Virus record (IMG/VR): IMGVR_UViG_2531839010_000002
Location: 9,765 to 73,764 of that record
Length of the DNA stretch: 64,000 nt
Source: a virus
Lineage: Duplodnaviria; Caudoviricetes
Strand: one strand, 5' to 3'
Shown here: positions 43,375 to 63,192 of the stretch, in pieces
Layout: every line of letters starts with the position of its first letter
Position numbering within the stretch: the stretch's first letter is position 1
The notes under the pieces: model-generated
What the model was told of the DNA's origin: nothing
What the model saw: the letters and a program-made list of their open reading frames with translations, nothing else
The model's database searches: none
Position numbers and translations under genes: made by a program

Positions 43375-43392
43375 ACACTATAATCGCAGGGA

Positions 43393-43422
43393 TGGGGTGG
43401 CAATATGCCACCCCACCTTTTT
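43393..43422 (+). terminator. Internal terminator before helicase gene
   Basis: TGGGGTGGCA-ATA-TGCCACCCCA then CCTTTTT. Confidence 0.6.
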
Positions 43423-44224
43423 ACCCCAAAACTGAAAGGAGGACAGAACACTATGCCAACCAAAGCTGAACTATATGCACAGATGGCGGAGAAAGTGGCA
43501 ACGCAGCTCACGGGAAGCTGGCAGGAATGGGCAGGGTTTCTCACCACTGCTTCCCGCCTTTACAAGTACCCGTTCCATGAGCAGTTGATGATCTACGCCC
43601 AGCGTCCGGACGCTACCGCCTGTGCAGAGTACGATTTGTGGAATGAAAAGATGGGGCGGTATGTAAGGCGCGGCTCCAAGGGGATCGCTCTGGTGGACGA
43701 TTCCGGGGACAGACCCCGCCTGCGCTATGTTTTTGATATTTCCGACACCGGAACCCGTGAACATTCCCGCACTCCCTGGCTGTGGCAGCTGGAGGAGCGC
43801 CATCTGGATTCCGTGCAGGTCATGCTGGAGCGCACCTATGATGTTTCCGGTGATGACCTTGCCGGACAGCTCACTGAGGTAGCCGGAAAACTGGCTGAGG
43901 AATACTGGACGGAGCATCAGCAGGACTTCTTCTATATCGTTGACGGTTCCTTTTTGGAGGAATATGATGAGTTTAACATCGGAGTACAGTTCAAGGCAGC
44001 AGCCACCGTCAGTATCACTTATGCTTTGATGTCCCGCTGTGGACTGGAACCGGAACGCTACTTCGACCACGAAGATTTCATGGCGATCTTTGATTTCAAT
44101 ACTCCGGCAACCATCGGAGCGTTGGGAACAGCGGTCAGCCAGATCAACCAGCAGGTGCTGCGGCAGATCGGCGTTACCGTCCGAAATGCAGAGCGCGAAG
44201 CCAACCAAGAAAGGAGCAAACAAG

Positions 44225-44581
44225 ATGAACAATCCCATGACCTATATCCAGAACGGAGACTATCTGATTCCCGACCTGAAGCTGAGCCAGCAGCCGGAGA
44301 AACCCCTGGGCAAGTACGGCAGGATGAGGAAAACCTACCTGAAGGAACACCGTCCCATCCTCTACAACCAGATGTTGCTGAGCGAGAAGCTGTACCCGCA
44401 CCTTCTGGAGATCGACGAGACCGCCCAGAGCAGACTGGAGCAGATGATGCCCCAGCTGGCGAAGGAAGCGGGAGCCACCGAGGAACTGAAAGCCAGCGAT
44501 CCCATGAAGTGGGTGGGGCTGATGAACACCTGCAAAGCTCAGGCCGAGGAAATCCTGATGACGGAGCTTATCAACAGCTGA
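44225..44581 (+). CDS. TnpV-like protein (118 aa) nested in +1 frame of helicase gene
   Basis: SD GAAAGGAG; GDYLIP..YLK.H..ID..AQ.R..TE.LKA..W.G..N motif shared with 51311-51685. Confidence 0.75.
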   Translation: MNNPMTYIQNGDYLIPDLKLSQQPEKPLGKYGRMRKTYLKEHRPILYNQMLLSEKLYPHLLEIDETAQSRLEQMMPQLAKEAGATEELKASDPMKWVGLMNTCKAQAEEILMTELINS

Positions 44582-47500
44582 CTCTAAACCTGTTCCTCTC
44601 CGAAGCGGAACAGATCCAATCCATAGATGAAGCAGAGAATGTAGCGCATACATCCTCTGCTTTTTCTTTTGCCCAAAATGACATCGACCATGTGCTGCGT
44701 TTGGGCGGTAATACAGACCGTCAAAGGGAGCGTGTGGTTGCAGCCTTTGAAAAGCAGAAAACCACCGCTGAGATTGCTGAGATACTGAAAACGCTGTACC
44801 ACGGCGGTAACGGCCTTGGCAGTGTGAGCGCATGGTATGCCGAGGATGGTATCCATCTTTCCCACGGGAAGTCTGTCCGTTATGACAGGTCTGCCCAGGT
44901 CATTTCCTGGGAGAGCGCCGCAGAGCGTATCGGGGAGCTTTTGGAAAGTGGTCAGTTTGCCTCCAATGTGGAGCTTGCAGAAGCGGCAGGCTATGAACGC
45001 TCCCTCCTTTCAGAAAAGCTCTGGCATCTGTACCACGATTTCAGCGAGGAAGCCAGAGAAGCCGGATATTTGTCCTGCCTGTCAGAGATCAAAGGCAATG
45101 GTTTCCCGGAGGAGACCCGCCGCCTGACGGAGCAGCTGAGTGACCCGGCTTTCCGCCAGACACTCAAGGAAGAATACGCTGCCTTCTGGACTGCCTATCA
45201 GCAGGACCGTGACCTGTTGCGTTTTCGCTATCATAGACCGAGGGAGATCTGGGAGAACCTGAAGGACCTTGACCTGCCCCGCAGGACCTTTTCTTCAGAG
45301 CTTTCCCAAGTGCCAACCGTCCAGCACTTCATTACCGAGGATGAGATCGACGCCGCTATGACCGGCGGCAGCAGTTTCGCCGGAGGAAAAGGCCGTATCT
45401 ATGCGTTCTTCATGGCAAACCATACGGATAAGGAGAAAGTGAGATTCCTCAAAGACGAGTATGGCATTGGCGGACGCTCTCATGCCCTGTCCGGCGCAAC
45501 ACACAGCGGCGAAGATCACGATGGGAAAGGACTGCACTATAAAAAGCAGGACTGCCCGGATGTTCACTTGAACTGGGAAAAGGTTGCCAAGCGCATTACC
45601 TCTCTTGTCCAGAAAGGCCGCTATCTTACCGAACAGGAACAGGCGCAGTATGACAAAATCCAGGCTGAAAAGGAATTGGCAGAAGAAGATGCCATCCAAG
45701 CCCAGCAGCCGGAGGTGGAGAAAGAAACGCCAAAGCCTACCCTTCGGGAGCAGTTTGAGCAGTATAAGACTGTGGTGACTGCCGCCATTTCCGAGGATAC
45801 CGCATACCGCAATGCCTGCGGGCATTCTGACCGTGAAAATGCTGTCATCGAGGGCAATGCCGCTGTGCGCCGTGCGGTCCTTGGTTCTAAGGATATGGAG
45901 CTGATCCGCCTCTATTCGGATGTGCCGGAGTTCCGACAGCGACTGCACCGGGAAGTGATCGACGAAACCTATCCAAAGCTCCATGAACTTCTGCGCCCTC
46001 TTTCTCAGGAAGATATTGATACTGCCATTTGTGCATGGAACGGCAATATCGAGAGTAAACACGCTGTCGTCCGTTATATGAAAGACCATGCAAGAGAGAA
46101 AGATACCGCTGCATGGCTGGCTCAGGAATACGGCGGCAGTAACAGCAACAGCCTGTTCGTTGTCCGTGCCGGAAGCCCGGAGGAAACGCAGCTGCCCTGG
46201 CCGAAGGTACAGCGCAGGCTTGCCCAGCTTATTCAGGAGGATCGGTTCTATACCGAAGAAGAACAGGACCGTTTTGACGACATCGACCCAATCGCCATCC
46301 GGGAAGCTCTGGAGGAAAGAGGGATCGTCAACGGCCAGGTGGCAGACCCGGAAAAACTGGACAATGACCCGTTTATCCAGCAGGTGGTGTCGGATGTAGA
46401 GCAGATCGCAGCTGCCGAGACAGAACAGACTTCCGAGGTTTCCATTTCCGATGAGGAATATGATGCCGTTCGCCGCCCGACTCCGCAAAGAACCTCCTAT
46501 GATCCTGCCGCCCCGGTTTATGCCGTGGGCGATACCGTGTATATCGAGGATGACGCCTATCAGATCACCGAGCTACGGGATGACACCGTGCAGCTTCTGC
46601 CTACCGGCATGGTATATCCCATCTATCGGGCAGAGCGCAAAGAACAGTTCGAGCAGCTGCTTCGGGCAGACCGCCGCAATGCTTACTATACCGAGTTTCT
46701 TCCCATTGACCCGGACAAGGCAGATCAAGACCTGCGGGATGTATTGGCCCATGGACTGATGGATGAAGCGGATAAACAGCAGCTTTCCACGCTACTGCAA
46801 TCTGGCAGGAGCAACAGTGAGATCGCCTACTGGCTGAGCAGAGCCTACCCTCATGAGATTGAGACCCTGAATCTGGAGACCGGCGATATTGCCGATTACC
46901 GTACCACGGCACAGGGCATGGAGCTGGAAGTCCTGGACGCAGAGGAAAAGCGTCTGGCTGTGCTGTATTTCCGCTGGGATGAGGTTGCGCCTTTGCTGCG
47001 CGGGATGTATGCCCGTCAGCAGGACGGCTTTGGACAGGAACAGCCCCAACCGGCTACCGAATCCCCGACCTTCCATTCCGAGACCATGGCCGTCTATCCG
47101 GGCGATAAGAACCATCTACCTTATGATGTGGTGGTGGAACGGTTGCATATTGAGGAGCCGGAGCCGCCAGCCCCTGTAACAGAGCCGGAGAAAACCTTTG
47201 AGGAAGTGCTGGATGAACACCCGGTTTCCATTCAGGTCAACGGCCAGTGGCAGACCTTCCCCAATGCCAAAGCTGCCGAGGAAGCCTCCTATGAGGAATA
47301 CAAGGCTAACCTGCGCCGCAATGCACAGAACTTCCGCATTACCGATGAGCATTTGGGCGAAGGCGGTCCAAAAACCAAGTTCCAGGCAAATGTTAATGCC
47401 ATTCGTTTGCTGAAAGAGCTGGAAGCTGCCGGACAGCAGGCAAGCCCCGAACAACAGGAGATTCTTTCCCGTTATGTGGGCTGGGGCGGTCTTTCAGATG

Positions 47501-50500
47501 CCTTTGACTCGGAAAAACTGGCATGGGTTTCCGAGTATGCCCAGCTGAAAGAGTTGCTGACCCCGGAGGAATATGCCGCCGCCAGAAGCTCTACCCTCAA
47601 TGCCCATTACACCAGCCCTACGGTTATCCAGGCAATCTATGAAGCGGTGGGGCGCATGGGCTTTGAGACCGGAAATATTTTGGAGCCATCTATGGGTGTG
47701 GGCAACTTCTTCGGTATGCTGCCGGAGGAAATGAGAAACAGCCGTCTATACGGTGTGGAGCTGGACCCGATTTCCGGGCGCATCGCAAAGCAGCTCTATC
47801 CCAAGGCGGACATCACAGTAGGCGGCTTTGAGACCACTGACAGGCGGGACTTCTTTGACCTTGCCATCGGCAATGTGCCTTTCGGTCAGTATCAGGTCAA
47901 CGACAAAACTTACAACAAGTTAAACTTTAGTATTCACAACTACTTTTTCGCCAAAGCACTGGATCAGGTGCGCCCCGGCGGTGTGGTAGCTTTTGTGACC
48001 TCCCGCTATACCATGGACGCCAAGGATTCCACCGTGCGCCGCTATCTTGCCCAGCGTGCCGAGCTGCTGGGAGCGATCCGTCTGCCTAATGACGCGTTCA
48101 AAAAGAATGCCGGTGCCGAGGTTGTATCGGACATCATCTTTCTCCAAAAGCGGGACCGTCCGCTGGACATTGCACCAGAGTGGACGCAGACCGGACAAAC
48201 GGAGGATGGGTTTGCCATCAACCGGTATTTTATCGACCACCCGGAAATGGTGCTGGGCAGACAGGAGCCGGTAAGCACTGCTCATGGTATGGATTACACC
48301 GTGAACCCTATCGAGGGACTGGAGCTTTCCGACCAGCTGCATGATGCGGTGAAGTACATTCATGGCACTTATCAGGAGGCAGAGCTGCCGGAGCTGGGCG
48401 AAGGCGAAGCCATTGACACCTCCATTCCTGCCGACCCAAATGTGAAGAACTATTCCTATGCCATTGTAGACGGGCAGGTGTACTATCGGGAAAACAGCCG
48501 CATGGTGCGCCCTGACCTCAACGCCACCGCCGAAGCCCGCGTGAAAGGTCTTGTGGGACTGCGTGATTGTGTGCAGGAACTGATCGACCTTCAGATGGAT
48601 GCAGCGGTTCCAGACAGCACCATTACCCAAAAACAGGCGGAACTGAACCGGCTCTATGACAGCTTTTCTGCCAAATACGGTCTCATCAATGACCGTGCAA
48701 ACCGCCTGGCCTATGCAGACGATTCTTCCTATTACCTGCTCTGTGCGCTGGAAGTTATTGACGAGGACGGAAAGCTGGAGCGCAAGGCGGATATGTTCAC
48801 CAAACGAACCATCAAGCCCCATCAGGCAGTGGCTGCTGTGGATACGGCAAGCGAAGCACTGGCGGTGTCCATCTCGGAAAAAGCCTGCGTAGATATGGGC
48901 TATATGAGCCAGCTTAGCGGAAAAACAAAAGAAGAACTGGAGGGAGAACTGCAAGGTGTGATCTTCCGTGTACCGGGACAGCTGGAACAGGACGGATCGC
49001 CCCATTATGTGACTGCTGATGAATACCTTTCCGGCAATGTACGCCGCAAACTGCGTCAGGCACAGAGGGCGGCACAGCAGGACCCGGTTTATGCAGTCAA
49101 TGTGGAAGCCCTTACCGCCGCCCAGCCCAAAGACCTGAATGCGTCGGAGATCGAGGTGCGTCTGGGCGCTACCTGGATTGACAAGGAGTACATCCAGCAG
49201 TTTATGTATGAGACCTTCAACACCCCGGTTTATCTCCAGCGCAGCATTGAGGTCAACTATTCCTCCTTTACTGCTGAATGGCAGATCAAGGGGAAATCTT
49301 CTGTATCCTACAACGATGTGGCAGCCTACACCACCTACGGAACCAGCCGTGCCAATGCCTACAAGATTTTGGAGGACAGCCTGAACCTGCGGGATGTCCG
49401 TATCTATGACACCATAGAGGACGCAGACGGAAAAGAGCGCCGCGTGCTGAATGCCAAGGAGACCACTCTGGCTGCCCAACAACAGCAGGCTATCCGGGAA
49501 GCCTTTAGGGACTGGATCTGGAGAGACCCGGAGCGCCGCCAGACTTTGGTGCGCCAGTATAACGAAGAAATGAACGCTACCCGTCCCCGCGAGTATGATG
49601 GCAGCCATATCACTTTTGGCGGCATGAACCCGGCCATTACCCTGCGGGAACACCAAAAAAGCGCTATCGCCCATGTGCTGTATGGCGGAAATACCCTGCT
49701 GGCACACGAAGTAGGCGCGGGCAAAACCTTTGAGATGGTGGCCGCTGCGATGGAAGCCAAACGCCTGGGCTTGTGCCAGAAATCTCTCTTTGTGGTTCCC
49801 AACCACCTGACTGAGCAGTGGGCATCGGAGTTTCTGCGCCTCTATCCTTCTGCCAACATCTTAGTCACAACCAAAAAGGACTTTGAGACCCATAACCGCA
49901 AGAAGTTCTGCGCCCGTATTGCGACCGGTGACTACGACGCCATCATCATGGGACACAGTCAGTTTGAGCGTATCCCCATCAGCCGGGAGCGTCAGGAACG
50001 GCTTCTCTATGAGCAGATCGACGAGATCACCGAGGGGATTGCAGAGGTACAGGCCAGCGGCGGCGAGCGTTTTACCGTCAAGCAGCTGGAGCGTACCAGA
50101 AAGTCTCTGGAAGCCAGACTGGAAAAGCTGCAAGCCGAAGGGCGAAAAGACGATGTGGTAACCTTCGAGCAGCTGGGTGTGGACCGTTTGTTTGTGGACG
50201 AGGCCCACAACTATAAAAACCTGTTTCTATACACAAAAATGCGGAATGTGGCTGGTCTGTCCACATCGGACGCGCAGAAATCCTCCGATATGTTTGCCAA
50301 GTGCCGCTATATGGATGAGATCACCGGAAACCGTGGCGTGATTTTTGCCACCGGCACCCCGGTCAGCAACTCCATGACCGAGCTTTACACCATGCAGCGT
50401 TATCTTCAGTATGAACGCCTGCAAGAACTGAACATGACCCACTTCGACTGCTGGGCTTCCCGATTTGGAGAGACCGTCACAGCATTGGAGCTGGCACCGG

Positions 50501-51265
50501 AAGGCACCGGCTACCGGGCAAGAACGAGATTCAGCAAGTTCTTTAATCTGCCGGAGCTGATGAACCTGTTCAAAGAAGTGGCGGACATCAAGACCGCCGA
50601 CCAACTGAACCTGCCCACCCCGGAGGTGGAATACCACAACATCGTGGCGCAGCCTACCGAACATCAGCAGGAAATGGTCAAGGCTCTTTCGGAGCGTGCA
50701 TCGCTGGTACACAGCGGAACCGTTGACCCGTCTCAGGACAATATGCTCAAGATTACCTCGGATGGCCGTAAGCTGGGGCTTGACCAGAGGATCGTCAACC
50801 AGATGCTGCCGGACGAATCTGGCACAAAGGTCAATCAGTGTGTGGACAACATCATGCAGATCTGGCGGGACGGCAAAGCTGACAAGCTGACCCAGTTGGT
50901 GTTCTGCGACATTTCCACGCCCCAGTCAGCTCTCTCCAAAAAGGCAGCCAAACAGCTGGACAATCCGCTGCTTCACGGGTTGGAAGAAGCAATCCCACTG
51001 GATGAACCGGAGCCTGCCTTTACCATCTATGAGGACATCCGCCAGAAGCTCATCGCCCAGGGGATGCCTGCCGAGCAGATCGCCTTTATCCACGAAGCCA
51101 ACACAGAGGTACGGAAAAAGGAACTGTTCTCCAAGGTCCGCACCGGGCAGGTGCGTGTCCTATTAGGAAGCACTGCCAAGATGGGTGCTGGCACCAATGT
51201 GCAGGACCGCCTTGTGGCGTTGCATGATTTGGACTGTCCGTGGCGTCCGGGAGATGTAGGACGGA

Positions 51266-51281
51266 TTTTGCGGACATTCAA
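51266..51281 (+). repeat. Left subterminal inverted repeat TTTTGCGGACATTCAA (partner 62178-62194)
   Basis: Reverse complement of TTGAACTGTCCGCAAAA with one-base gap. Confidence 0.8.
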
Positions 51282-51310
51282 AATAAAAAAGAATGTGGAG
51301 GTAACAGACA

Positions 51311-51685
51311 ATGGCAAAATCATTATTTGAGGAACTGGGCGGCAAATACGAAAGGCAAGGCGATTATCTAATTCCATGTATAACTTTACCCGCCGAAGAA
51401 GAACAGGCAATAGGTATCTGGGGGCAGCGGCATTTGGATTATCTGAAGCATCACTGTAAAGTTACATACACCAATCTTCTTACAAGCGGCAGACTTAACG
51501 CTTACCTTGCCGACATTGACAGACAGGCACAGGAACGCTTTGAAAGGCTCATAGAGGGTATGAAACAGGCACAGGGCATAACGGAACAGCTAAAGGCAGA
51601 AAACGCCTTAGAATGGACAGGATGCCTCAATAACATAAGGGCTTGTGCGAGGGAGATTGTGGAAAAGGAAATTATTTTTGCATAA
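51311..51685 (+). CDS. tnpV: TnpV family protein
   Basis: LFEELGGKYERQGDYLIP motif; SD GGAGG. Confidence 0.85.
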   Translation: MAKSLFEELGGKYERQGDYLIPCITLPAEEEQAIGIWGQRHLDYLKHHCKVTYTNLLTSGRLNAYLADIDRQAQERFERLIEGMKQAQGITEQLKAENALEWTGCLNNIRACAREIVEKEIIFA

Positions 51686-51698
51686 ACAGATGATTAGT

Positions 51699-51727
51699 GG
51701 CAGGGTGAAATCCTGCCGCTTTTTTTG
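51699..51727 (+). terminator. Terminator after tnpV
   Basis: GGCAGG-GTGAAAT-CCTGCC-GC-T8. Confidence 0.75.
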
Positions 51728-51742
51728 CTTTAGTTTGTCAGC

Positions 51743-51771
51743 TTGACAAATAAAGGGTTAAGGAATATAAT
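51743..51771 (+). promoter_or_regulatory. Consensus sigmaA promoter of tet(O)
   Basis: TTGACA-17-TATAAT. Confidence 0.9.
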
Positions 51772-51980
51772 TAGATTCAGTTTTATACAAGGAGTTAATA
51801 AATATGCGGCAAGGTATTCTTAAATAAACTGTCAATTTGATAGTGGGAACAAAAAGTAGCAGTCCCGTTTCACTTTTAATATGGGGCTTAGTTTTTTGTA
51901 CCCAGTTTAAGAATACTTTTATCATGTAATTTTATATGCCCGAAAACATATAAGTGTTTTGGGGCTATTGGAGTTATTTG

Positions 51981-52015
51981 CCCAGTGATAGGAGTATTTA
52001 TCACTGGGTATTTTT
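51981..52015 (+). promoter_or_regulatory. Attenuator-like hairpin in tet(O) leader
   Basis: CCCAGTGATA/TATCACTGGG stem followed by TATTTTT. Confidence 0.6.
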
Positions 52016-52051
52016 ATGCCCTTTTTTGGGTGTTGATAGGAGGAAAATCAC

Positions 52052-53971
52052 ATGAAAATAATTAACTTAGGTATTCTGGCTCACGTTGACGCAGGAAAGA
52101 CAACATTAACGGAGAGTTTATTGTATACCAGTGGTGCAATTGCAGAACTAGGGAGCGTAGATAAAGGCACAACAAGGACAGATACAATGAATTTGGAGCG
52201 TCAAAGGGGAATCACTATCCAGACAGCAGTGACATCTTTTCAGTGGGAGGATGTAAAAGTCAACATTATAGATACGCCAGGCCATATGGATTTTTTGGCG
52301 GAAGTATACCGTTCTTTATCCGTATTAGACGGAGCAGTATTATTAGTTTCTGCAAAGGATGGCATACAGGCACAGACCCGTATACTGTTTCATGCATTAC
52401 AGACAATGAAGATTCCGACAATTTTTTTCATCAATAAAATTGACCAAGAGGGGATTGATTTGCCAATGGTATATCGGGAAATGAAAGCAAAGCTTTCTTC
52501 GGAAATTATAGTGAAGCAAAAGGTTGGGCAGCATCCCCATATAAATGTAACGGACAATGACGATATGGAACAGTGGGATGCGGTAATTATGGGAAACGAT
52601 GAACTATTAGAGAAATATATGTCAGGGAAACCGTTTAAAATGTCAGAACTGGAACAGGAAGAAAACAGGAGATTCCAAAACGGAACGTTATTTCCCGTTT
52701 ATCACGGAAGCGCTAAAAACAATCTGGGGATTCGGCAGCTTATAGAAGTGATTGCCAGTAAATTTTATTCATCAACGCCTGAAGGTCAATCTGAACTATG
52801 CGGGCAGGTTTTTAAGATTGAATATTCAGAGAAAAGGCGGCGTTTTGTTTATGTGCGTATATATAGCGGAACATTGCATTTGAGGGATGTCATTAGAATA
52901 TCTGAAAAAGAGAAAATAAAAATCACAGAGATGTGTGTTCCGACAAACGGTGAATTATATCCATCCGATACAGCCTGCTCTGGTGATATTGTAATTTTAC
53001 CAAATGATGTTTTGCAGCTAAACAGTATTTTGGGGAACGAAATGCTGTTGCCGCAGAGAAAATTTATTGAAAATCCTCTCCCTATGCTCCAAACAACGAT
53101 TGCAGTAAAGAAATCTGAACAGCGGGAAATATTGCTTGGGGCACTTACAGAAATTTCAGATGGCGACCCTCTTTTAAAATATTATGTGGATACTACAACG
53201 CATGAGATTATACTTTCTTTTTTGGGGAATGTGCAGATGGAAGTCATTTGTGCCATCCTTGAGGAAAAATATCATGTGGAGGCAGAAATAAAAGAGCCTA
53301 CTGTTATATATATGGAAAGACCGCTTAGAAAAGCAGAATATACCATCCACATAGAAGTCCCGCCAAATCCTTTCTGGGCTTCTGTCGGGTTGTCCATAGA
53401 GCCGCTCCCTATTGGAAGCGGAGTGCAGTATGAAAGCAGAGTTTCACTTGGATATTTAAACCAATCGTTCCAAAATGCGGTTATGGAGGGGGTTCTCTAT
53501 GGCTGCGAGCAGGGGCTGTATGGATGGAAAGTGACAGACTGTAAAATCTGTTTTGAATATGGATTGTATTATAGTCCTGTAAGTACCCCCGCAGACTTTC
53601 GGCTGCTTTCCCCTATCGTATTGGAGCAGGCTTTAAAAAAAGCAGGGACAGAACTATTAGAGCCATATCTCCACTTTGAAATTTATGCACCGCAGGAATA
53701 TCTCTCACGGGCGTATCATGATGCCCCAAGGTATTGTGCAGATATTGTAAGTACTCAGATAAAGAATGACGAGGTCATTCTGAAAGGAGAAATCCCTGCC
53801 AGATGTATTCAAGAATACAGGAACGATTTAACTTATTTCACAAATGGGCAGGGAGTCTGCTTGACGGAGTTAAAAGGATACCAGCCAGCTATTGGTAAAT
53901 TTATTTGCCAACCCCGCCGCCCGAATAGCCGTATAGATAAGGTTCGGCATATGTTCCACAAGTTAGCTTAA
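52052..53971 (+). CDS. tet(O): Tetracycline ribosomal protection protein Tet(O)
   Basis: 639 aa, [17 protein letters not shown]...[10 protein letters not shown], matches Tet(O) as recalled. Confidence 0.95.
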
Positions 53972-54022
53972 CAGCTTGCAAAAGTCGTATAAAATGAGAT
54001 TTGAAAGGATTAGAGACTAATT

Positions 54023-54196
54023 ATGATGAAATGCGAATGGATATTGTGTCCTGTTTGTGGGAGCAAAACCCGTAATAAAATTAGGAAGGACACTGTTTTG
54101 AAGAATTATCCCCTTTATTGTCCAAAATGCAGACAGGAAAGATTGATTAAAGTTGACAACTTGAAGATAACTGTCATCAAAGAGCCAGACGCTTAA
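54023..54196 (+). CDS. cpp2: 57-aa cysteine-rich KTR zinc-ribbon protein
   Basis: WILCPVCGSKTR...YPLYCPKCRQE; hand-translated; usual position after tet(O). Confidence 0.85.
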   Translation: MMKCEWILCPVCGSKTRNKIRKDTVLKNYPLYCPKCRQERLIKVDNLKITVIKEPDA

Positions 54197-54249
54197 GACG
54201 CAGAGCCGATGAAATTGTGGAACAATTCACGAATCATCGGCTCTTTTTG
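54181..54249 (+). terminator. Terminator whose 5' arm is the last of four AGAGCC/AGACGC repeats
   Basis: Repeats at 54181, 54187, 54196, 54202; stem AGAGCCGATGA/TCATCGGCTCT + TTTT. Confidence 0.8.
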
Positions 54250-54684
54250 TTTCGTATTTGAAAGAACAAACTCACCAAATAAAAAAAACGATATTCGGGT
54301 GGGTTATTTTGTTATACCCTAAATTACCCTCTGAATTTGTTTTTAAATTTGGAGGGATTTTTTTATGTTCTTTTTTCGGGCGGTTATTCATCTGCTCATA
54401 CGAAGTAAAATTTATCAATACATAGCATGTCAGAGAACGGCAGGAAACCAGTTAAAAAAATTTCTGCCAGTGCAGCGGTACTTCTCACCTTGAAAGTAGA
54501 AGTACAATCTCTATACAACAGAATTATTATTTCCTATAACCGTAAAGGTCACAGAGCCTTTGCGGTTTTTCTTTTGTCGATTTTTGTTGGAAAGTGCCGC
54601 AGGGCTGTTTCTGATATGCGGTGTCGTTCTCCGCCTCTCCATCTGGATTTTACATTTCAAAAATTCGGATTGGAGGACAATACG

Positions 54685-55194
54685 GTGAAATATGCACCAA
54701 GAAAGGTATATATCAGGGAAAGTGGCGGCTATGTGGAATTATCTTACACGGACTTCTGCCGCTGCAGGGAATCCGACCAGACCTACATGGACAAGCTGTT
54801 TATCCCCATTCAAGGATGTCTGCTGGAAGTCTTGAGGGAGCAATACACAGACTTCTACCGAGATAAGGAACGGTGGCGTTATCTGCAAAAATTAGATACG
54901 AAGAACAGCCTGCTTTCTCTGGATGGATTTACGGACAGAGAGGGGAATCCTCTGGACTTTATCGCTGATGAAGCGGCGGACATTGCGGAAACCGTTGTCA
55001 ATGCGGTTATGGTGGACAGGCTGAAAGCCGCCCTGCCTTTGCTGTCGGATAGTGAACAGGAGCTGATACAGGCAATCTTTTTTGACGGACTTTCCGAGCG
55101 TGAAGTTGGGGAGAGGTTGGGCATAACCCAGAGCGTTGTGAACAAACGCAAAGCTAGAATCCTTATAAAACTAAGAAAGATAATAGAAAATTAA
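54685..55194 (+). CDS. Sigma70 region-4-like HTH protein
   Basis: GTG start with SD GGAGG; LSEREVGERLGITQSVVNKRK. Confidence 0.8.
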   Translation: MKYAPRKVYIRESGGYVELSYTDFCRCRESDQTYMDKLFIPIQGCLLEVLREQYTDFYRDKERWRYLQKLDTKNSLLSLDGFTDREGNPLDFIADEAADIAETVVNAVMVDRLKAALPLLSDSEQELIQAIFFDGLSEREVGERLGITQSVVNKRKARILIKLRKIIEN

Positions 55195-55288
55195 ATTTTA
55201 AGGCGTTCAGCCCCCTTGTTTTTTCCTTTGGGAAAATGAGGGGGCTTTTGCTGCCCTCTCAATCAATTCTGATTGGAGGAAAAGAAGC

Positions 55289-55714
55289 ATGGCATACAAC
55301 CACGGACGGGAGGACAGGAAATGGCGTATCTGGAAAGAAGCGGAGGAAAAGCTGCTGCGTGAGTGCGGCGTTGATGAAGCGACTATTGAGCAGATACGCA
55401 TTGCGGACAGGGCAGACTTCAATTCCAACAGGCGGTTTTACCGATGGACGAATGACGTTGCGGAATACCTTGAGGACATGGCAGACAGGGAGCGGCAGAC
55501 GGAAGTGGGTACGGTTGCGGAGTTACTGGACGAGATTGAGAGCGAAAATCTCTATCAAGTATTAGTCACGGTGGACGGGCGTACCTTGAAAATCGTCCTG
55601 CTGAAAATGCAGGGGTATTCCACAAAGGAGATTGCCCCACTTGTGCATTTGACGACTGGTGCCATCTATGCGAGGTTAGACCATCTGCGGAAGAAGCTGC
55701 GGAAAATTTTGTAA
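55289..55714 (+). CDS. Sigma70 region-4-like HTH protein
   Basis: GYSTKEIAPLVHLTTGAIYARL. Confidence 0.8.
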   Translation: MAYNHGREDRKWRIWKEAEEKLLRECGVDEATIEQIRIADRADFNSNRRFYRWTNDVAEYLEDMADRERQTEVGTVAELLDEIESENLYQVLVTVDGRTLKIVLLKMQGYSTKEIAPLVHLTTGAIYARLDHLRKKLRKIL

Positions 55715-55798
55715 GCGTCTAATACATCCCATTATCCTGCGGGCTACTGGGTGGGGAGTGAAATCTCCCCGCTTATTTTTTGGCAGGAGGACAGCGGG

Positions 55799-56272
55799 AT
55801 GGCATACAGGGTTAAGGCATACACGCTTCGGGAGGAATCCACGGAAAGTAGCACAAGGTATTTTATCAGTTTTAAGGACGGGCAGGGCAAATCCCACGAG
55901 TTGGAAGTGTCGGAACAGTTCTTTATGGAGTTTCGGCAGATGGAACGCAGGAACAGGAATCTTCTCCAATGGGACGAGCGGCACAGGGAGTTCAACGAGG
56001 TATGGGACGAAACCCTTTACAGACGGGCGTTGCGTGTGCCTAAGAGCCTTGATGAACGCATGATTGAAGAAGAACGGAATGAAACGCTCTGTAAGGCGGT
56101 TGAGAGCCTGCCAGAGATACAAAGGCGGCGTTTCCTGCTTTATTACGAGTATGGGTTCAATTTTTACCAAATCGCTGCGATGGAGCATTGCACCGCTTCA
56201 GCAATACAGAAATCTGTTGCGATTGCAAAGGAGAAAGTAAAGGCGGAAATGAAGAAGTATCTCCAACCGTGA
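55799..56272 (+). CDS. Sigma70 region-4-like HTH protein
   Basis: LPEIQRRRFLLYY..NFYQIA.ME. Confidence 0.8.
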   Translation: MAYRVKAYTLREESTESSTRYFISFKDGQGKSHELEVSEQFFMEFRQMERRNRNLLQWDERHREFNEVWDETLYRRALRVPKSLDERMIEEERNETLCKAVESLPEIQRRRFLLYYEYGFNFYQIAAMEHCTASAIQKSVAIAKEKVKAEMKKYLQP

Positions 56273-56425
56273 CCGACACCGACCGAAAAAGAAATCTGTT
56301 TTTTATTTGTGTGGGATTGGCGGCATTACATACTCTCACTTTTTTCGTGGGAGTAAATCTATTTTTAAGGAGGTCAACGCCTATGTGCAACGAAAACAAA
56401 AACACCGACCGAAAGGAGGAAACCC

Positions 56426-57457
56426 ATGCAGAAGTTACAGACAATCAACGCCGAAACGCTCCTTTATGAGCCGCTTGAGAAGCCGTCCTTTGTGGTAGAC
56501 AGCCTTATTCCCACAGGATTGTCGCTGTTCTGCGGCTCACAGAAGATAGGCAAGAGCTGGCTCATGCTGAAGCTATGCCTATGCGTGTCACAGGGAATCC
56601 CTTTATGGGATATGCCGACAATGGAGGGCGATGTGCTTTACCTCTGCCTTGAGGACACGTTCTGCCGCATACAGGACAGGCTGTTCCGATTGACGGACGA
56701 AGCAAGCGGGCGGCTCCACTTTGCCGTGGCAAGCTGCAAGTTGTCAGACGGTCTTATCGTGCAGCTTGAGGATTATCTGAAAGATTACCCAGACAGCAGG
56801 CTCATTGTGATTGATACCTTGCAGAAAGTCCGTACAGCTTCAAAAGACAACGCCTATGCAAGCGACTATGGGGACATCTCCCTAATCAAAGACTTTGCCG
56901 ACAGGCATTCTCTGGCGGTGGTAGTCGTACACCATATCCGAAAGCAGAATGACAGCGACGTGTTCAACAAGGTGTCTGGGACGACAGGCTTAACGGGGAG
57001 TGCGGACGCTACCTTTGTTCTGGAAAAGGAGAAACGGGCATCCGATACCGCCAAGCTGTATGTGACAGGCAGGGATACGCCTTATCAGGAATTCACGCTG
57101 CGTTTCCGTGATTGCAGTTGGGAACTTGTGGAGAGGAAAACGCAGGAGCAGCTTGCGAAAGAAACGATACCAGATGTCCTTTTTCGGTTAGTGGATTTTA
57201 TGAGGGATAAGGAAGAATGGGCAGGCACGGCAACGGAACTGTTAGCCGCTATGGGGGAAACGGAAACCGTACCCACGGTGATTACGAAATGGCTGAATGA
57301 ATACCGCACCACATTTTTAAGCGAGAACCGTATCTGCTACCAGTACAGCCGCAGGAAAGACGGCAGGCAGATTGCCCTTGCAAGGCGGGAGGGTGACAGC
57401 GGTGACGGTGGTGACAGCGATATTGGGATACCCCCTGTTACTGTCATTGACGCTTAA
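56426..57457 (+). CDS. AAA (RecA-like, RepA-type) helicase
   Basis: GSQKIGKS Walker A, LIVIDTLQ Walker B, VVHHIRK. Confidence 0.85.
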   Translation: MQKLQTINAETLLYEPLEKPSFVVDSLIPTGLSLFCGSQKIGKSWLMLKLCLCVSQGIPLWDMPTMEGDVLYLCLEDTFCRIQDRLFRLTDEASGRLHFAVASCKLSDGLIVQLEDYLKDYPDSRLIVIDTLQKVRTASKDNAYASDYGDISLIKDFADRHSLAVVVVHHIRKQNDSDVFNKVSGTTGLTGSADATFVLEKEKRASDTAKLYVTGRDTPYQEFTLRFRDCSWELVERKTQEQLAKETIPDVLFRLVDFMRDKEEWAGTATELLAAMGETETVPTVITKWLNEYRTTFLSENRICYQYSRRKDGRQIALARREGDSGDGGDSDIGIPPVTVIDA

Positions 57458-57856
57458 AGCCGTGTAAAGTTGGCGGCTCTGCCCTGCGGGTGACAGCGGT
57501 GACGGCGGTGACAGTGATTTTAGGATACCCCGCCGCTGTCATCCCTACGGGAGAACACCCCGCAAACGCAAAGTGCAGGCGTGGGATTCACCCGCCCTTT
57601 TCGGCGTGTAAAACCACCCCTGCGGTCAGAAAAATCCATCTGATTTTTCCGACTGCGTTTACAGGGTGTAACACACTACACTTTGCCCTGCAAAGAGCCG
57701 TGTGCCAGACGTTCCCTCTGGACTCCCTTAAAGCAGGGCTGTCGCCCTGCTATCCTGCGCCTTGCGGCTTCGGATAAAAGAATGTCGGGGTGACGGTGAC
57801 GGCTCATGCGAGGGGGTATCCCAATATCGCTGTCACCACTGTCACCGCTGTCACCC
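57390..57856. repeat. Three ~45-bp iteron blocks of GGTGAC(A/G)G(C/T) units ending in GGATACCCC; two direct, one inverted
   Basis: About 57390-57436, 57488-57532 and inverted 57806-57856. Confidence 0.8.
57662..57688 (-). promoter_or_regulatory. Candidate MOBV-type oriT
   Basis: Minus strand AAAGTGTAGTGTTACAC resembles pMV158-family oriT; flanked by CAGGG/CCCTG; upstream of mobV. Confidence 0.55.
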
Positions 57857-57893
57857 AAAGGGCAGTTACCCGCCGAAGAAAGGAAGATGATGA

Positions 57894-58862
57894 ATGATGC
57901 CCTATGCAATCCTGCGTTTCCAGAAACGCAAAGCGGGCGGCGTTGCGGCTTGTGAACGCCACAATGAACGGAAGAAAGAAGCCTATAAAAGCAATCCAGA
58001 TATAGATATGGAACGCTCGAAAAATAACTACCACCTTGTAAGACCGCCACGTTACACCTACAAGAAAGAGATTAACCGCATGGTAGCCGAAGCAGGGTGC
58101 AGGACAAGGAAAGACAGCGTGATGATGGTGGAAACGCTTATCACGGCTTCACCAGAATTTATGAACCAGTTACCGCCCGAAGAACAGAAAGCGTATTTTA
58201 CGATGGCTCTGGACTTCATTTCGGAGCGTGTCGGGGAGAAAAATATCCTCTCCGCTGTCGTCCACATGGACGAGAGAACGCCGCATATGCACCTCTGTTT
58301 TGTGCCGATTACACCAGACAACAAGCTGTCAGCGAAAACCATTTTAGGCAACCAGAAATCATTATCCGAGTGGCAGACCGCCTACCATGAGCGGATGTCC
58401 TCACGGTGGAATCAGCTTGAACGGGGGCAATCCTCAATGGAAACGAAACGGAAACACGTCCCCACATGGCTCTATAAATTGGGCGGCAGGCTTGATAAAC
58501 AGTATGGGGAAATCGTGTCTGCCCTGTCCGACATCAACGCCTTTAACGCAGGGAAGAAGCGTGACAAGGCTCTGGAACTGATAGCGGCATGGCTCCCAGA
58601 CGTGGAGAAATTCTCTAAAGAAATCGGGAAACAGCAGGCGTATATCGACAGTTTGAAAGAGAGAATCGGGCAGGAATCAGACTATGCGGGGCGTATGCGT
58701 GATGAAAAGTACGAGCAGGAATTAAAGGTGCAGAAAGCGAATCAGAAGATATTTGAATTGCAGAGAACCAACGAACAGATGGGGCGGCTGCTGTCAAAAA
58801 TACCGCCAGAAGTGTTGGAAGAATTGCAGAAAAACCATAAAAGCAGAATGAAAGAAAGGTAG
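57894..58862 (+). CDS. mobV: MobV / Mob_Pre relaxase
   Basis: HNER motif and VVHMDERTPHMH. Confidence 0.9.
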   Translation: MMPYAILRFQKRKAGGVAACERHNERKKEAYKSNPDIDMERSKNNYHLVRPPRYTYKKEINRMVAEAGCRTRKDSVMMVETLITASPEFMNQLPPEEQKAYFTMALDFISERVGEKNILSAVVHMDERTPHMHLCFVPITPDNKLSAKTILGNQKSLSEWQTAYHERMSSRWNQLERGQSSMETKRKHVPTWLYKLGGRLDKQYGEIVSALSDINAFNAGKKRDKALELIAAWLPDVEKFSKEIGKQQAYIDSLKERIGQESDYAGRMRDEKYEQELKVQKANQKIFELQRTNEQMGRLLSKIPPEVLEELQKNHKSRMKER

Positions 58863-58870
58863 ATATGTGA

Positions 58871-59725
58871 ATGAAGAAACAGGATTTTAAGGTGTTAAAG
58901 ACCAAAGATTTGTACCCATTTCCCGACAATCCGTTTCATGTGGCAGAGGATGAAACGCTGTCAGAATTAGCGGAAAGCATCAAGGAATTTGGCATTGTCA
59001 CGCCGATAATCACACGCCCGAAAGAGGACGGAAATGGTTATGAAGTGATTGCAGGACAGCGGCGTGTCCGTGCTTCTGAACTTGCAGGGATAAATACCGT
59101 GCCTGCATTTGTCCTGCCCTTAGACCGTGACCGAGCCATCATTACCCTTGTAGACAGTAATTTACAGCGTGAAAATATCCTGCCGAGCGAGCGGGCGTTT
59201 GCCTACAAGATGAAATCCGAAGCCATGAAGCGGCAGGGGTTTCGCACGGACTTAACCTCGTCACAAGTTGTGACGAAGTTGCGGACGGATGACAAAGTGG
59301 CACAGGGCTTCGGCGTGGGCAGGATGACCGTGCAGCGATTTATCCGATTGACGGAACTGATACCGCCGATTTTGCAGATGGTGGACGAGGGGAGAATCGC
59401 CCTCACACCTGCGGTGGAACTGTCCTTCTTGAAGAAAGACGAGCAGGAAAACCTCTTTGCCACGATGGAGAGCGAAGAAGCAACTCCCTCACTCTCACAG
59501 GCACAGCGGATGAAACAGTTAAGCCAGAGCGGACGGCTTGATATGGATACGATATTTGCGATTATGACCGAGAAAAAAGGAAACCAGAAAGAAACCTTGA
59601 AAATCAACACAAGCAAGCTGAAAAAATACTTTCCGAAGAACACAACGCCGAAGCAGATGGAGGAAACCATCATACGACTTCTGGAACGTGAGTTGCAGAG
59701 AAAACGGAGCAAGGACAGCCGCTAA
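58871..59725 (+). CDS. ParB-like protein
   Basis: GQRRVRA, DSNLQRE, paralog of ICE ParB. Confidence 0.85.
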   Translation: MKKQDFKVLKTKDLYPFPDNPFHVAEDETLSELAESIKEFGIVTPIITRPKEDGNGYEVIAGQRRVRASELAGINTVPAFVLPLDRDRAIITLVDSNLQRENILPSERAFAYKMKSEAMKRQGFRTDLTSSQVVTKLRTDDKVAQGFGVGRMTVQRFIRLTELIPPILQMVDEGRIALTPAVELSFLKKDEQENLFATMESEEATPSLSQAQRMKQLSQSGRLDMDTIFAIMTEKKGNQKETLKINTSKLKKYFPKNTTPKQMEETIIRLLERELQRKRSKDSR

Positions 59726-59802
59726 TCTTCTCTTTTCGGGAAGTAAATATGAAACTCTGGACGGATAAAAACCAGAAAGCCAAGACAGAAAAGGGGCAGG
59801 AA

Positions 59803-60033
59803 ATGAAAGAAATCCAATATAAGATTGTAAAGGAAATCGCCGTATTGTCTGCGAGTGACAGTGGCTACACAAAAGAAATCAATCTTATCTCATGGAACGG
59901 GAGAGAGCCGAAATATGACATCCGCAGCTTTTCCCCGAACCGTGAGAAGTGCGGAAAAGGAATAACTTTAAACGCTGATGAAGCGGCGGCACTCCTTGAA
60001 GCATTACAGAAAGAATTGCACAGCGGGGATTGA
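59803..60033 (+). CDS. YdbC/PC4-like ssDNA-binding protein (alternative start 59749)
   Basis: KEINLISWNG..PKYDIR..KCGKGITL. Confidence 0.8.
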   Translation: MKEIQYKIVKEIAVLSASDSGYTKEINLISWNGREPKYDIRSFSPNREKCGKGITLNADEAAALLEALQKELHSGD

Positions 60034-60103
60034 TGGTATCTGATTGACAGGGCGGGGCGTTTCCAGACGTTCTCCTGCCCTGTCTGGAAAGGAAGATTTA
60101 AGT

Positions 60104-60295
60104 ATGGGCGAGGATAAGAAAGCAGATAAAAAGAGGAAGCGTATCGTGCCGAAAGCACCAGTGCAGATGATAATCAGCCGTGAATATGTCGGCACACAGA
60201 CAGTCACAGAAGCGTTTGTCCCGATTATCTCCGAGGATATTCGGAAGAAGATTGCCGAGGGCGACACCTTCGACAATGAGGGGATATCCGCTTAG
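60104..60295 (+). CDS. 63-aa protein upstream of recombinase (possible accessory factor)
   Basis: SD GAAAGGAAG; open frame. Confidence 0.6.
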   Translation: MGEDKKADKKRKRIVPKAPVQMIISREYVGTQTVTEAFVPIISEDIRKKIAEGDTFDNEGISA

Positions 60296-60349
60296 AATGT
60301 ACGCAATGGAACATGAAAACAGATAGGACAGATACGGAGGTTTTACAAT

Positions 60350-62281
60350 ATGGCAGGAACAAGAACGGAGAATAAGATTTATGAAGTCGGCATGTACTGC
60401 CGCTTGTCAAAGGACGATGGCACGGATAACGAGAGTGCGAGCATTGCGACACAGAAATCCATCCTCACGGATTATGTGAAAAAGCAGGGATGGCACTTAG
60501 CAAAAACGTATGTGGACGATGGTTATTCTGGTACGAATTTCCAAAGACCAAGTTTCCAAAACATGATTAAGGACATTGAAAACGGACTGATAAACTGCGT
60601 TATCACGAAAGATTTATCCCGTCTGGGGAGGAACTATCTTGATTGTGGGTTATATCTCGAAGTCTTTTTTCCAGAGCATAACGTGAGGTATATAGCGGTC
60701 AATGACGGCGTGGACACGCTCAATAAATCAGCGATGGACATCACGCCTTTCCGCAACATCCTAAACGAGATGTATGCCGCCGACATATCAGTCAAGATAA
60801 AATCAGCGTACCGTGCGAGGTTTCAGCAGGGGAAATTCATGGGGACGACAGCACCATACGGATATGTCAAAGACCCTGCCGACCATAATCACCTATTGAT
60901 TGATGATAAAGTTGCACACGTTGTAAGAGAAATATTTGACCTTGCGTTAGCGGGCAACGGAATCGCCAAAATCCGCAAGCACATCAACAAACAGCATATC
61001 CTACGCCCTGCCGCTTATGCGGTGGAGCAAGGGTCAACAGGCTATGAGCGGCACTTTGAGGGTAACGAGGAAAACCGTTATATTTGGAGCGAGAACAGCG
61101 TAAGGGGCATTTTAAGAAGCCCGATATATGCGGGAAACCTTGCAGGCTACAAGCGGATTGCCGCCAACATGAAAAGCAAGAAACGCCCCTCTAAGCTGCC
61201 CGAAGAATGGGAAGTGATACCCGACACCCATGAGGGGATAGTCACGCAGGAGGAGTTTGACAACGTACAGCAGCTTATTACAAGCCGCAGATTACCAGAA
61301 AACAAGGGCGGCTTTGAGAACATCTTTGCAGGCGTTATCAAATGTGCGGACTGCGGCTATGCTATGCGGGCTATGAGTGCCAACAGGAGGAAACGCCCCG
61401 ACATCATCGACTGCGTACAATATACCTGCAATAATTATGGCAGATACGGTAATATCATGTGTACCGCACACAGCATTGAAGCGAGGGACTTGTTCAACGC
61501 CGTCCTTATCGACATCAACCGATTTGCGGATATGGCGGTGAGTGATGAAAAGGCGGTGAGGGCGATTGAAAAGCGGCTCACGGAAACAGACCAGAGCAAG
61601 GCAAAGGCATTGGAAAAGGAGCAGAGAAAGCTGAACAAACGCCTTGCGGAACTGGACAGGCTGTTTTCTTCCCTTTATGAAGATAAGGTGATGGAGCGTA
61701 TTACGGAGCGGAATTTTGAGATGATGTCAGGGAAATACCAGAAAGAGCAGCTTGAAATTGAAGCAAGGCTGAAAGAGGTAATGGAAACGCTTAACGACAG
61801 CTATGAGAAGTCGCAGGGTGTCCGTGACTTCCTCTCCTTAATCCGCAACTATCAAGGCATTAAGGAACTGGACGCAACCATCATAAACGCACTCATAGAC
61901 AAGATACTTGTTTCGGAACGTGAGAAGCTTACAGACGGAACGGTGCGGCAGGAAATCAAGATTTATTATAAATTCATCGGCTTTGTCGGTGAATTACATA
62001 TCACACCCACAAAGCGGTGGACAGCATTAAAGCCTAAGAATTGCACGGTATGCGGTGTTGAATATGTTCCCTGCTCTGCAATATCAAAGTATTGCCCAGA
62101 GTGCAGGAAAAAGATAAGAAAGGTTCGAGGAACGGAAACGAAGCGCAGGAGCAGGGAGCGAAACAGACAGGCATGTATTGAACTGTCCGCAAAAAATGAC
62201 CGACTGACCTTGCCCAGCGCAAGGGCCGTATCGAGCGTCAGGGCAACCAGAATCCTCTTGTCCATGTGTACCGCTATGTGA
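60350..62281 (+). CDS. Large serine recombinase (TnpX/TndX-like), reading across attR
   Basis: YCRLS, DDGYSG, KDLSRLGR, zinc ribbon CADC..C..C; final residues come from helicase DNA. Confidence 0.93.
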   Translation: MAGTRTENKIYEVGMYCRLSKDDGTDNESASIATQKSILTDYVKKQGWHLAKTYVDDGYSGTNFQRPSFQNMIKDIENGLINCVITKDLSRLGRNYLDCGLYLEVFFPEHNVRYIAVNDGVDTLNKSAMDITPFRNILNEMYAADISVKIKSAYRARFQQGKFMGTTAPYGYVKDPADHNHLLIDDKVAHVVREIFDLALAGNGIAKIRKHINKQHILRPAAYAVEQGSTGYERHFEGNEENRYIWSENSVRGILRSPIYAGNLAGYKRIAANMKSKKRPSKLPEEWEVIPDTHEGIVTQEEFDNVQQLITSRRLPENKGGFENIFAGVIKCADCGYAMRAMSANRRKRPDIIDCVQYTCNNYGRYGNIMCTAHSIEARDLFNAVLIDINRFADMAVSDEKAVRAIEKRLTETDQSKAKALEKEQRKLNKRLAELDRLFSSLYEDKVMERITERNFEMMSGKYQKEQLEIEARLKEVMETLNDSYEKSQGVRDFLSLIRNYQGIKELDATIINALIDKILVSEREKLTDGTVRQEIKIYYKFIGFVGELHITPTKRWTALKPKNCTVCGVEYVPCSAISKYCPECRKKIRKVRGTETKRRSRERNRQACIELSAKNDRLTLPSARAVSSVRATRILLSMCTAM

Positions 62282-63192
62282 CCGAAGGAACCTTTGACGC
62301 ATACCTCTGGCAGACGGTGGAGAATAAACAAAAATTCATCAGCCAGATCATGACCAGCAAAAGTCCGGTTCGCTCCTGCGATGATGTGGATGAAACAGCC
62401 CTCAGTTTTGCCGAGATCAAGGCTCTGTGCGCCGGAGATCCCCGCATCAAGGAGCGTATGGATTTGGATGTGGAGGTATCCCGCCTGAAGCTGATGAAAG
62501 CCGACCACCAGAGCAAGCAATATCGTCTGGAGGACCAGCTGCTCAAATACTTCCCGGAGGAGATTGAAAAGCACAAAGGCTTTATCAAGGGCTTTGAATC
62601 CGATCTGGAGGTTTTGGCAGCGCACCCGCACCCGGAGGACGGTTTTGCTGGTATGGAAATCCGTGGCGATCTGCTGACCGATAAGGAGAATGCCGGCGCA
62701 GCACTTCTGGATGCCTGCAAGGAGGTCAAAACCTCCGATCCGGTGCAAATCGGCAGCTACCGGGGCTATGCCATATCCGTGGAATTTTCCGCATGGAAAC
62801 AGGAGTATACGCTCCTGCTGAAAGGACAGATGACCCACCGGGCAACCCTTGGTATAGACCCTCGCGGAAATCTTACCCGTATCGACAATGCCCTCGCCCA
62901 GATGCCCCAGCGTCTGGAGGCGGCAAAGGCCCAGCTGGATAACCTCTATCAGCAGCAGGCTGCCGCAAAGGAGGAAGTCGGAAAGCCATTCCCCTTTGAG
63001 GACGATCTGCGGGTCAAGTCCGCCCGTCTGGTGGAGCTGGATACTTTGCTGAACATCGATGGAAAGGGACAGGCACACGCCGAGGCTGTTGTTGCCAAAA
63101 GCACACGGCCTTCGGTGCTGGACAGCCTGAAGCGCCCGGTGACGCCCCGCAGTATAGACAAGAAACCAAAACAGCATGAGGAGGTGCGATAA
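62208..63192 (+). pseudogene. 3' remnant of SNF2 helicase gene (motif VI onward)
   Basis: Reads LAQRKGRIERQGNQ..YRYVTEGTFDAYLWQ in the restored frame. Confidence 0.9.

Follow-up and report, generated by a model that had tools for sequence, protein, structure and literature searches.

The 64,000-nucleotide stretch of DNA analysed here (the window) carries a gene of the TnpV family that lies entirely within a giant gene of an ICE, on the same strand and one base out of frame (Table 1). The two very probably form a true nested gene pair, with both products made from one stretch of ICE DNA. This judgement rests on sequence comparison; it is by inference that tnpV has its own initiation, that cells contain both proteins and that TnpV has the role proposed below. 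Ribosomes coming from the start of the giant gene (probably ATG 43453) would read the overlap in frame 0 and produce a disordered tether of about 120 residues between the ArdC-like N-terminal domain and the methylase/SNF2-helicase body. Other ribosomes would initiate at the internal GAAAGGAG and ATG 44225 in the +1 frame and produce the folded TnpV protein.

Table 1. Positions in the window of the nested gene, its host gene and the inserted element (all on the + strand)
Feature	Position	Strand	Basis and remarks
Giant gene, 5' part, ArdC-like N-terminal domain	43453..44223	+	Variability; AF2/Foldseek
Internal SD GAAAGGAG for tnpV, within host coding sequence	44209..44216	+	Invariance in 69 loci
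Host reading of the overlap, disordered linker of ~120 aa	44224..44583	+	Open frame; AF2; composition
Nested tnpV, 118 aa, +1 relative to host frame	44225..44581	+	Full-length match to PF14198
Giant gene body, Eco57I-like methylase and SNF2/ResIII helicase	44584..51254	+	Pfam; variability
Second TnpV, 124 aa, first gene of tet(O) element	51311..51685	+	PF14198, E=5e-45
Giant gene, 3' remainder past the inserted element	62208..63192	+	In-silico join

The original prediction placed a +1-frame ORF with an SD of its own inside the giant gene and regarded it as a relative of the TnpV encoded at 51311. The ORF was found as described, with GAAAGGAG upstream; it runs for 118 codons from ATG 44225 to TGA 44579-44581, the host codons beginning at 44224. 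Its product matches the Pfam TnpV model over positions 1-111 of 111 (E=2.5e-44, 150.2 bits against a cut-off of 27), so that the proposed HMM check gave a positive answer. The supposed full-length alignment with the stand-alone TnpV was also borne out, being ungapped at 37% identity (E=3e-28). TnpV is a small mobile-element protein of Firmicutes (about 110-125 aa), whose relatives are found on both ICEs and plasmids; the nested copy belongs to this family and sits within an ICE gene. The AF2 model of the protein (pLDDT 91.5) consists of a beta-hairpin and five helices. Comparison of this model with solved structures gave only generic helical matches (Foldseek E>4, VIA-align Z<=5.6), and Xis was not matched. 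NCBIfam contains no model for TnpV, and an exact-match query for a TnpV named at NCBI (P0035) gave no record. In the window (44570-44600) and in related loci, the 3' end of tnpV (…ELIYS, then the stop) overlaps a conserved Q-L-S/T-L-F motif of the host protein (…LQLSLF…). Thus, the overlap reaches beyond the linker alone into a conserved motif. No terminator-like hairpin was found 3' of tnpV in the window.

The host frame is stop-free from 43384 to 51330 on the + strand, and the longest ORF in it (43405-51330) has 2641 codons. The true start of the giant gene is probably ATG 43453 and not 43405: the former has an SD, GAAAGGAGG, 8 nt upstream, and the latter, the first ATG of the longest ORF, is covered by a terminator-like hairpin at 43393-43415 (a 10-bp stem followed by a T-run). 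The N-terminal domain scores below the cut-off of the Pfam ArdcN model (17.4 bits, E=0.005; cut-off 22.6). Its AF2 model has a pLDDT above 90, and the only standout Foldseek matches are to ArdC of R388 (6i89/6sna; probability 1.0, E=2.6e-3). Further along the protein, SNF2-rel_dom and ResIII score over the Pfam cut-offs, and Eco57I is borderline (25.2 against a cut-off of 25.3). The product of the giant gene can be read as a polyvalent conjugative-element protein, a single chain that carries more than one effector domain (methylase, SNF2 helicase). Although the source of the DNA is filed as a 73,764-base 'virus record', this part of it is an ICE.

Between the ArdC-like N-domain and the rest of the host protein, an open host frame reading as a low-complexity linker had been predicted, and such a linker is present. 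It is free of stops and rich in G, E, R, D and S, and 76% of its residues are polar or disorder-promoting. In the AF2 model of host residues 1-473, the overlap (residues 282-398) has a pLDDT below 50 and no secondary structure. Bulky hydrophobic residues make up about 10-14% of this peptide compared with 35% of TnpV.

Evidence that the host frame is under selection comes from a simple property of the overlap. A host-frame stop requires a tnpV codon with T in third position followed by a codon that starts with AA, AG or GA. In the nested gene of the window, T is found in 0 of 40 such risky contexts and ends 9 of the 77 other codons. In the 59 distinct tnpV sequences among the best 80 close copies, T at the third position occurs in 0 of 2293 risky contexts versus 524 of 4610 safe ones. 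The same holds for 35 copies less than 80% identical to one another (1/1382 risky versus 366/2658 safe), which include members with 33-40% GC. As a control, single-coded DNA of the same element has T at 15/64, 95/612 and 54/351 risky positions (15-23%), and stand-alone tnpV genes have it at 70/430 (16%). The second TnpV gene of the window has six such pairs (6/38), each of them a stop in the -1 frame. Where T does occur in the nested copies, the next codon appears to vary with it: T ends codon 116 in 8 copies and the safe CA begins the next codon in 8, and T ends codon 3 in 45 copies with CC beginning the next codon in 45 (in both cases it is the per-column counts that match). Synonymous resampling from the codon usage of the host gene left the host frame open in 0.06% of trials (P(open)=0.0006), and permuting the codons within the gene left it open in 3%. 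The open host frame is therefore not explained by chance.

The second line of evidence is the variability (entropy) at each codon position in an alignment of 69 distinct loci. Upstream (43405-44223) and downstream (44584 onward) of the overlap, host position 3 is the most variable. Within the overlap, the maximum moves to host position 1 (tnpV position 3) and the minimum lies at tnpV position 2; the switch falls exactly at the tnpV boundaries. Where the two peptides were compared at the same loci, that of the host frame was the less conserved (34-42% versus 54-56% for TnpV). The switch indicates that TnpV is under amino-acid selection and that the host frame is mainly kept open. Sequence comparison thus shows that selection keeps both frames intact, the host frame being constrained mainly to remain open and polar. 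The site-wise constraint that had been named as a check on the prediction was therefore seen in both forms, as avoidance of stop-creating T and as codon-position variability.

These data leave practically no room for the tnpV frame being a silent relic of an inserted gene, conserved only as a by-product of constraint on the host linker. An open linker does constrain some sites, and beyond this nothing specific speaks for a relic. A by-product of host-frame constraint would show the opposite order of variability among the three tnpV positions, and the host-frame peptide would hardly be the less conserved of the two. Moreover, full-length HMM matches, start, SD and stop of tnpV persist at 20-30% identity.

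The nested arrangement is widely distributed. A search for related loci gave at least 504 relatives, from gut Clostridia; each of the 80 best (83-99% TnpV identity) keeps the ATG and the stop of tnpV and has a host frame that runs open through the gene. The N-terminal domain of the giant protein was then used as a query in 201 Clostridia genomes, and 47 loci with 25-97% identity were taken; these samples are centred on a carrier genome. A TnpV homologue directly follows the N-domain in 45 of the 47 loci, in the +1 frame in every case (45/45). The host stop-to-stop segment covers tnpV in 43 of the 45, at N-domain identities of 25-64%, so the stop-free conservation proposed as a check extends down to about 25% identity in both frames. 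One of the two uncovered loci (L105) ends at a contig edge. The other (L096, G115:C52) has a single host-frame TGA 14 codons into the overlap and an intact tnpV. A Monoglobus plasmid (L133) has a host-frame stop inside the N-domain, with tnpV again intact. The stops in L096 and L133 look like recent knock-outs of the host gene or sequencing errors; they imply that some copies can do without the fused host protein. The same layout is seen on plasmids of C. botulinum, C. perfringens, Monoglobus and Cohnella (a genus of the Bacillus class), and the host frame is open across the overlap in all four. Nesting is thus ancient: it occurs in both Clostridia and Bacilli, on chromosomes as well as plasmids, and persists where N-domain identity has fallen to about 25%. 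Megablast of positions 43405-45000 against plasmid and phage collections gave no match.

A sample drawn with the Pfam model allows for comparison of nested and free copies. TnpV was found in 24 of 401 Bacillota genomes; 40 matches were taken and 42 genes examined. A copy was classed as nested if the N-domain lay upstream, the host frame contained no stop and the frame was open across the whole stretch taken. By this definition 17 genes are nested (no host-frame stops) and 25 are stand-alone (3-12 stops), with none intermediate; 15/15 nested loci from this sample have an open host frame. A further 16 stand-alone copies have 2-14 stops in the equivalent frame, with the exception of one (L144) that has none. 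Among full-length stand-alone genes, 28 of 29 have 2-14 stops, L144 being the only stop-free copy. This gene (G002:C1:171011-174337) has no N-domain nearby, and its open -1 frame could be due to chance at 54% GC or to a recent escape from a nested copy. The neighbours of stand-alone tnpV genes are serine recombinases, Mob relaxases, coupling proteins, UvrD helicases and HTH regulators.

Gene calls in public records describe the locus differently. The contig calls consist of an antisense ORF of 255 aa, then tnpV, then a helicase starting from a GTG equivalent to 44509; in RefSeq plasmid records and public calls, only one of the two, TnpV or the giant gene, is annotated at a time. The antisense ORF (43471-44238, - strand) was rejected as spurious, because codon-position entropy shows that the host frame of the + strand is coding. 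The calls as they stand would support three ordinary cistrons, namely an upstream gene, tnpV and a helicase from GTG 44509, with the host frame across tnpV open by chance or composition and untranslated. Such an arrangement is very unlikely. In every intact relative, the N-domain ORF has no stop until the end of the giant gene. Stop-creating T is avoided along the entire overlap and not just in the part after 44509, also in members with 33-40% GC. Nearly all full-length stand-alone copies carry stops in the frame in question. The entropy data that contradict the antisense ORF count against this division of the locus as well. The calls therefore amount to a systematic misannotation across gut-microbe genomes, in which one gene or the other is given, or a spurious antisense ORF. 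The ArdC-like N-domain of these anti-defence giants is, as a result, often missing from protein databases.

Translation of tnpV appears to begin within the host gene. The octamer GAAAGGAG, which ends 8 nt short of the tnpV ATG, does not vary among 69 distinct loci, even at two host wobble positions, while the adjoining bases are among the most variable of the region. ATG is the start in 54 of 60 nested copies, and a core SD lies 5-17 nt upstream of the start in 50 of 60 nested loci versus a background of 13% (random codons). In many relatives (for example L087, L089, L097, L122 and L123), a stop in the tnpV frame occurs 1-8 codons before the ATG. What is expected of a separate translation start is thus met at the level of DNA, though initiation itself is unobserved.

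An internal SD can also stimulate frameshifting, as in prfB and IS elements. TnpV might accordingly be, wholly or in part, a C-terminal extension of the ArdC-like domain reached by programmed +1 frameshifting near 44200-44225, with GAAAGGAG as a possible stimulator of the shift. The gene is always exactly +1 and always directly after the N-domain, and in the window no stop interrupts its frame over the 65 codons that precede the ATG, which would suit such a product. Frameshifting is nonetheless improbable. The stops shortly before the ATG in many relatives leave hardly any room for a shift site, although no search for slippery sites was made. The prevalence of ATG and the SD spacing are those typical of initiation, and stand-alone TnpVs of equal length do without an N-domain.

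Contigs from RNA libraries of two studies bridge 43.1-45.8 kb, which is weak evidence for a transcript; they give no strand, ends, level or frame and may include DNA. The sequence coding for the N-domain contains a single sigma-70-like site (TTGACG-17-TATGAT) at 43940-43968, located 257 nt upstream of the tnpV start codon. Its -35 hexamer is shared by all 69 loci, even at two wobble positions. Such sites are no more numerous than expected by chance, so a dedicated tnpV promoter at this place is only a possibility.

The history of the overlap was approached with a tree of 54 nested and 39 stand-alone TnpVs, built on 118 columns; its backbone is unresolved and no root is claimed. The tree needs at least seven changes of state between nested and free, the well-supported branches alone force four, and no bootstrap tree allows for a single change. 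Nested copies are present in both deep halves of the tree. In sister pairs of opposite state (L094 with L146/L147, and L174 with L181), DNA homology ends at the ends of the ORF, which shows the mobile unit to be the ORF itself, the direction being unresolved. Thus, tnpV has moved several times between the nested and the free state.

One distant homologue of the giant gene (L120, G135:C2:274933-277979), among the loci without a TnpV match, lacks tnpV. Here the N-domain is connected by a linker of about 45 aa with the conserved QLSIF motif, and many stops interrupt the +1 frame. This locus fits an insertion of tnpV that created the linker, but a loss would look identical. The original prediction held that the TnpV frame is a real gene, dual-coded with the linker, which the HMM, open-frame and site-constraint results uphold. 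It also described the gene as overprinted on the helicase and the linker as possibly made by an ancient insertion. The insertion is compatible with L120; the direction implied by overprinting may be wrong, since the folded and constrained frame is that of tnpV.

Comparison with known systems underlines what is particular to this locus. The TnpV proteins of Tn4451/Tn4453 and Tn6104-Tn6106 belong to the same family (PF14198), are of similar length and are carried by conjugative or mobilisable elements of Firmicutes. A stand-alone tnpV in C. coli pCOS502 directly follows a large serine recombinase, like the tnpX-tnpV order of Tn4451. TnpV has been 'postulated to be involved in excision' by its likeness to lambda Xis (PMC3158075). 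Unlike the Tn4451-type genes, the nested gene of the window lies entirely within the limits of another gene, shifted by one base, and no recombinase adjoins it. The host gene has the architecture of the polyvalent proteins of conjugative elements, giants in which ArdC-N, a methylase and an SNF2 helicase are joined (Iyer et al. 2017, PMC5512222): a domain that resembles ArdC in its predicted structure, an Eco57I-like methylase and an SNF2/ResIII helicase, in an ICE. It differs from the giants described there in that the linker between its domains also serves as a second gene; TnpV, overlapping frames and frameshifts are all absent from that paper. Full-text literature searches turned up no publication that connects TnpV with overlapping genes.

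Small out-of-frame genes with their own start, wholly inside a larger gene of the same strand, are also known from comS inside srfAB of Bacillus subtilis (46 codons) and Rz1 inside Rz of phage lambda (about 60 codons), each confined to a narrow lineage. Unlike these, the overlap of the window covers 118 codons, encodes a folded protein defined by a Pfam family, is found in Clostridia and Bacilli, and has abundant free-standing kin. The orfA and orfB genes of the IS3 family likewise use two frames of one strand in a mobile element. Their frames are joined by -1 frameshifting into a fusion, whereas the stops preceding tnpV and its own SD argue for separate initiation.

Very few long same-strand overlaps of bacterial genes are solidly supported in both frames, and they are often disputed. 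The TnpV overlap offers hundreds of independent sequences, a simple site-level signature and clean internal controls, the latter thanks to the presence of nested and free members in one protein family; roughly 40% of the TnpV genes in the sample of 401 Bacillota genomes are nested. It can therefore serve as a tractable system for the balance of internal initiation inside a translated ORF, for the tolerance of a disordered linker to being the by-product of another gene, and for the way in which genes enter and leave overlaps. Resistance genes such as tet(O) are part of the cargo of these ICEs, which makes an uncharacterised conserved factor on them worth knowing.

As a working view, nesting would tie the synthesis of TnpV to the transcript of a transfer-associated giant gene, and TnpV would serve conjugative or mobilisable elements as a small accessory factor. 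Its stand-alone relatives adjoin serine recombinases, relaxases and coupling proteins. A more far-reaching possibility, which is doubtful at present, is that TnpV is originally a 'gene that lives inside a linker'; the nested form extends across the entire TnpV tree. Repeated escapes from the overlap would then have given rise to the free TnpVs found on Tn4451-type transposons and resistance plasmids, or else the two states would exchange by ORF-sized recombination. Nesting would be functional, with TnpV made in cis from the mRNA of the giant gene and acting on or with the polyvalent protein, for example with its ArdC-like ssDNA-binding head during transfer. If this were true, the TnpV of the tet(O) element could interfere with that of the ICE.

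The second TnpV of the window does belong to a separate element, as had been supposed. The tet(O) element (51255-62207) splits the giant gene near its 3' end, just before helicase motif VI, and GC falls at 51.2 kb. Joining position 51254 to 62208 in silico gives an ORF of 2928 aa from ATG 43453 with motif VI restored, and the joined sequence reads ...DLDCPWRPGD/LAQRKGRIERQGN... (junction WRPGD/LAQRKGR). The element also contains a recombinase-sized ORF of 643 aa at 60350-62281.
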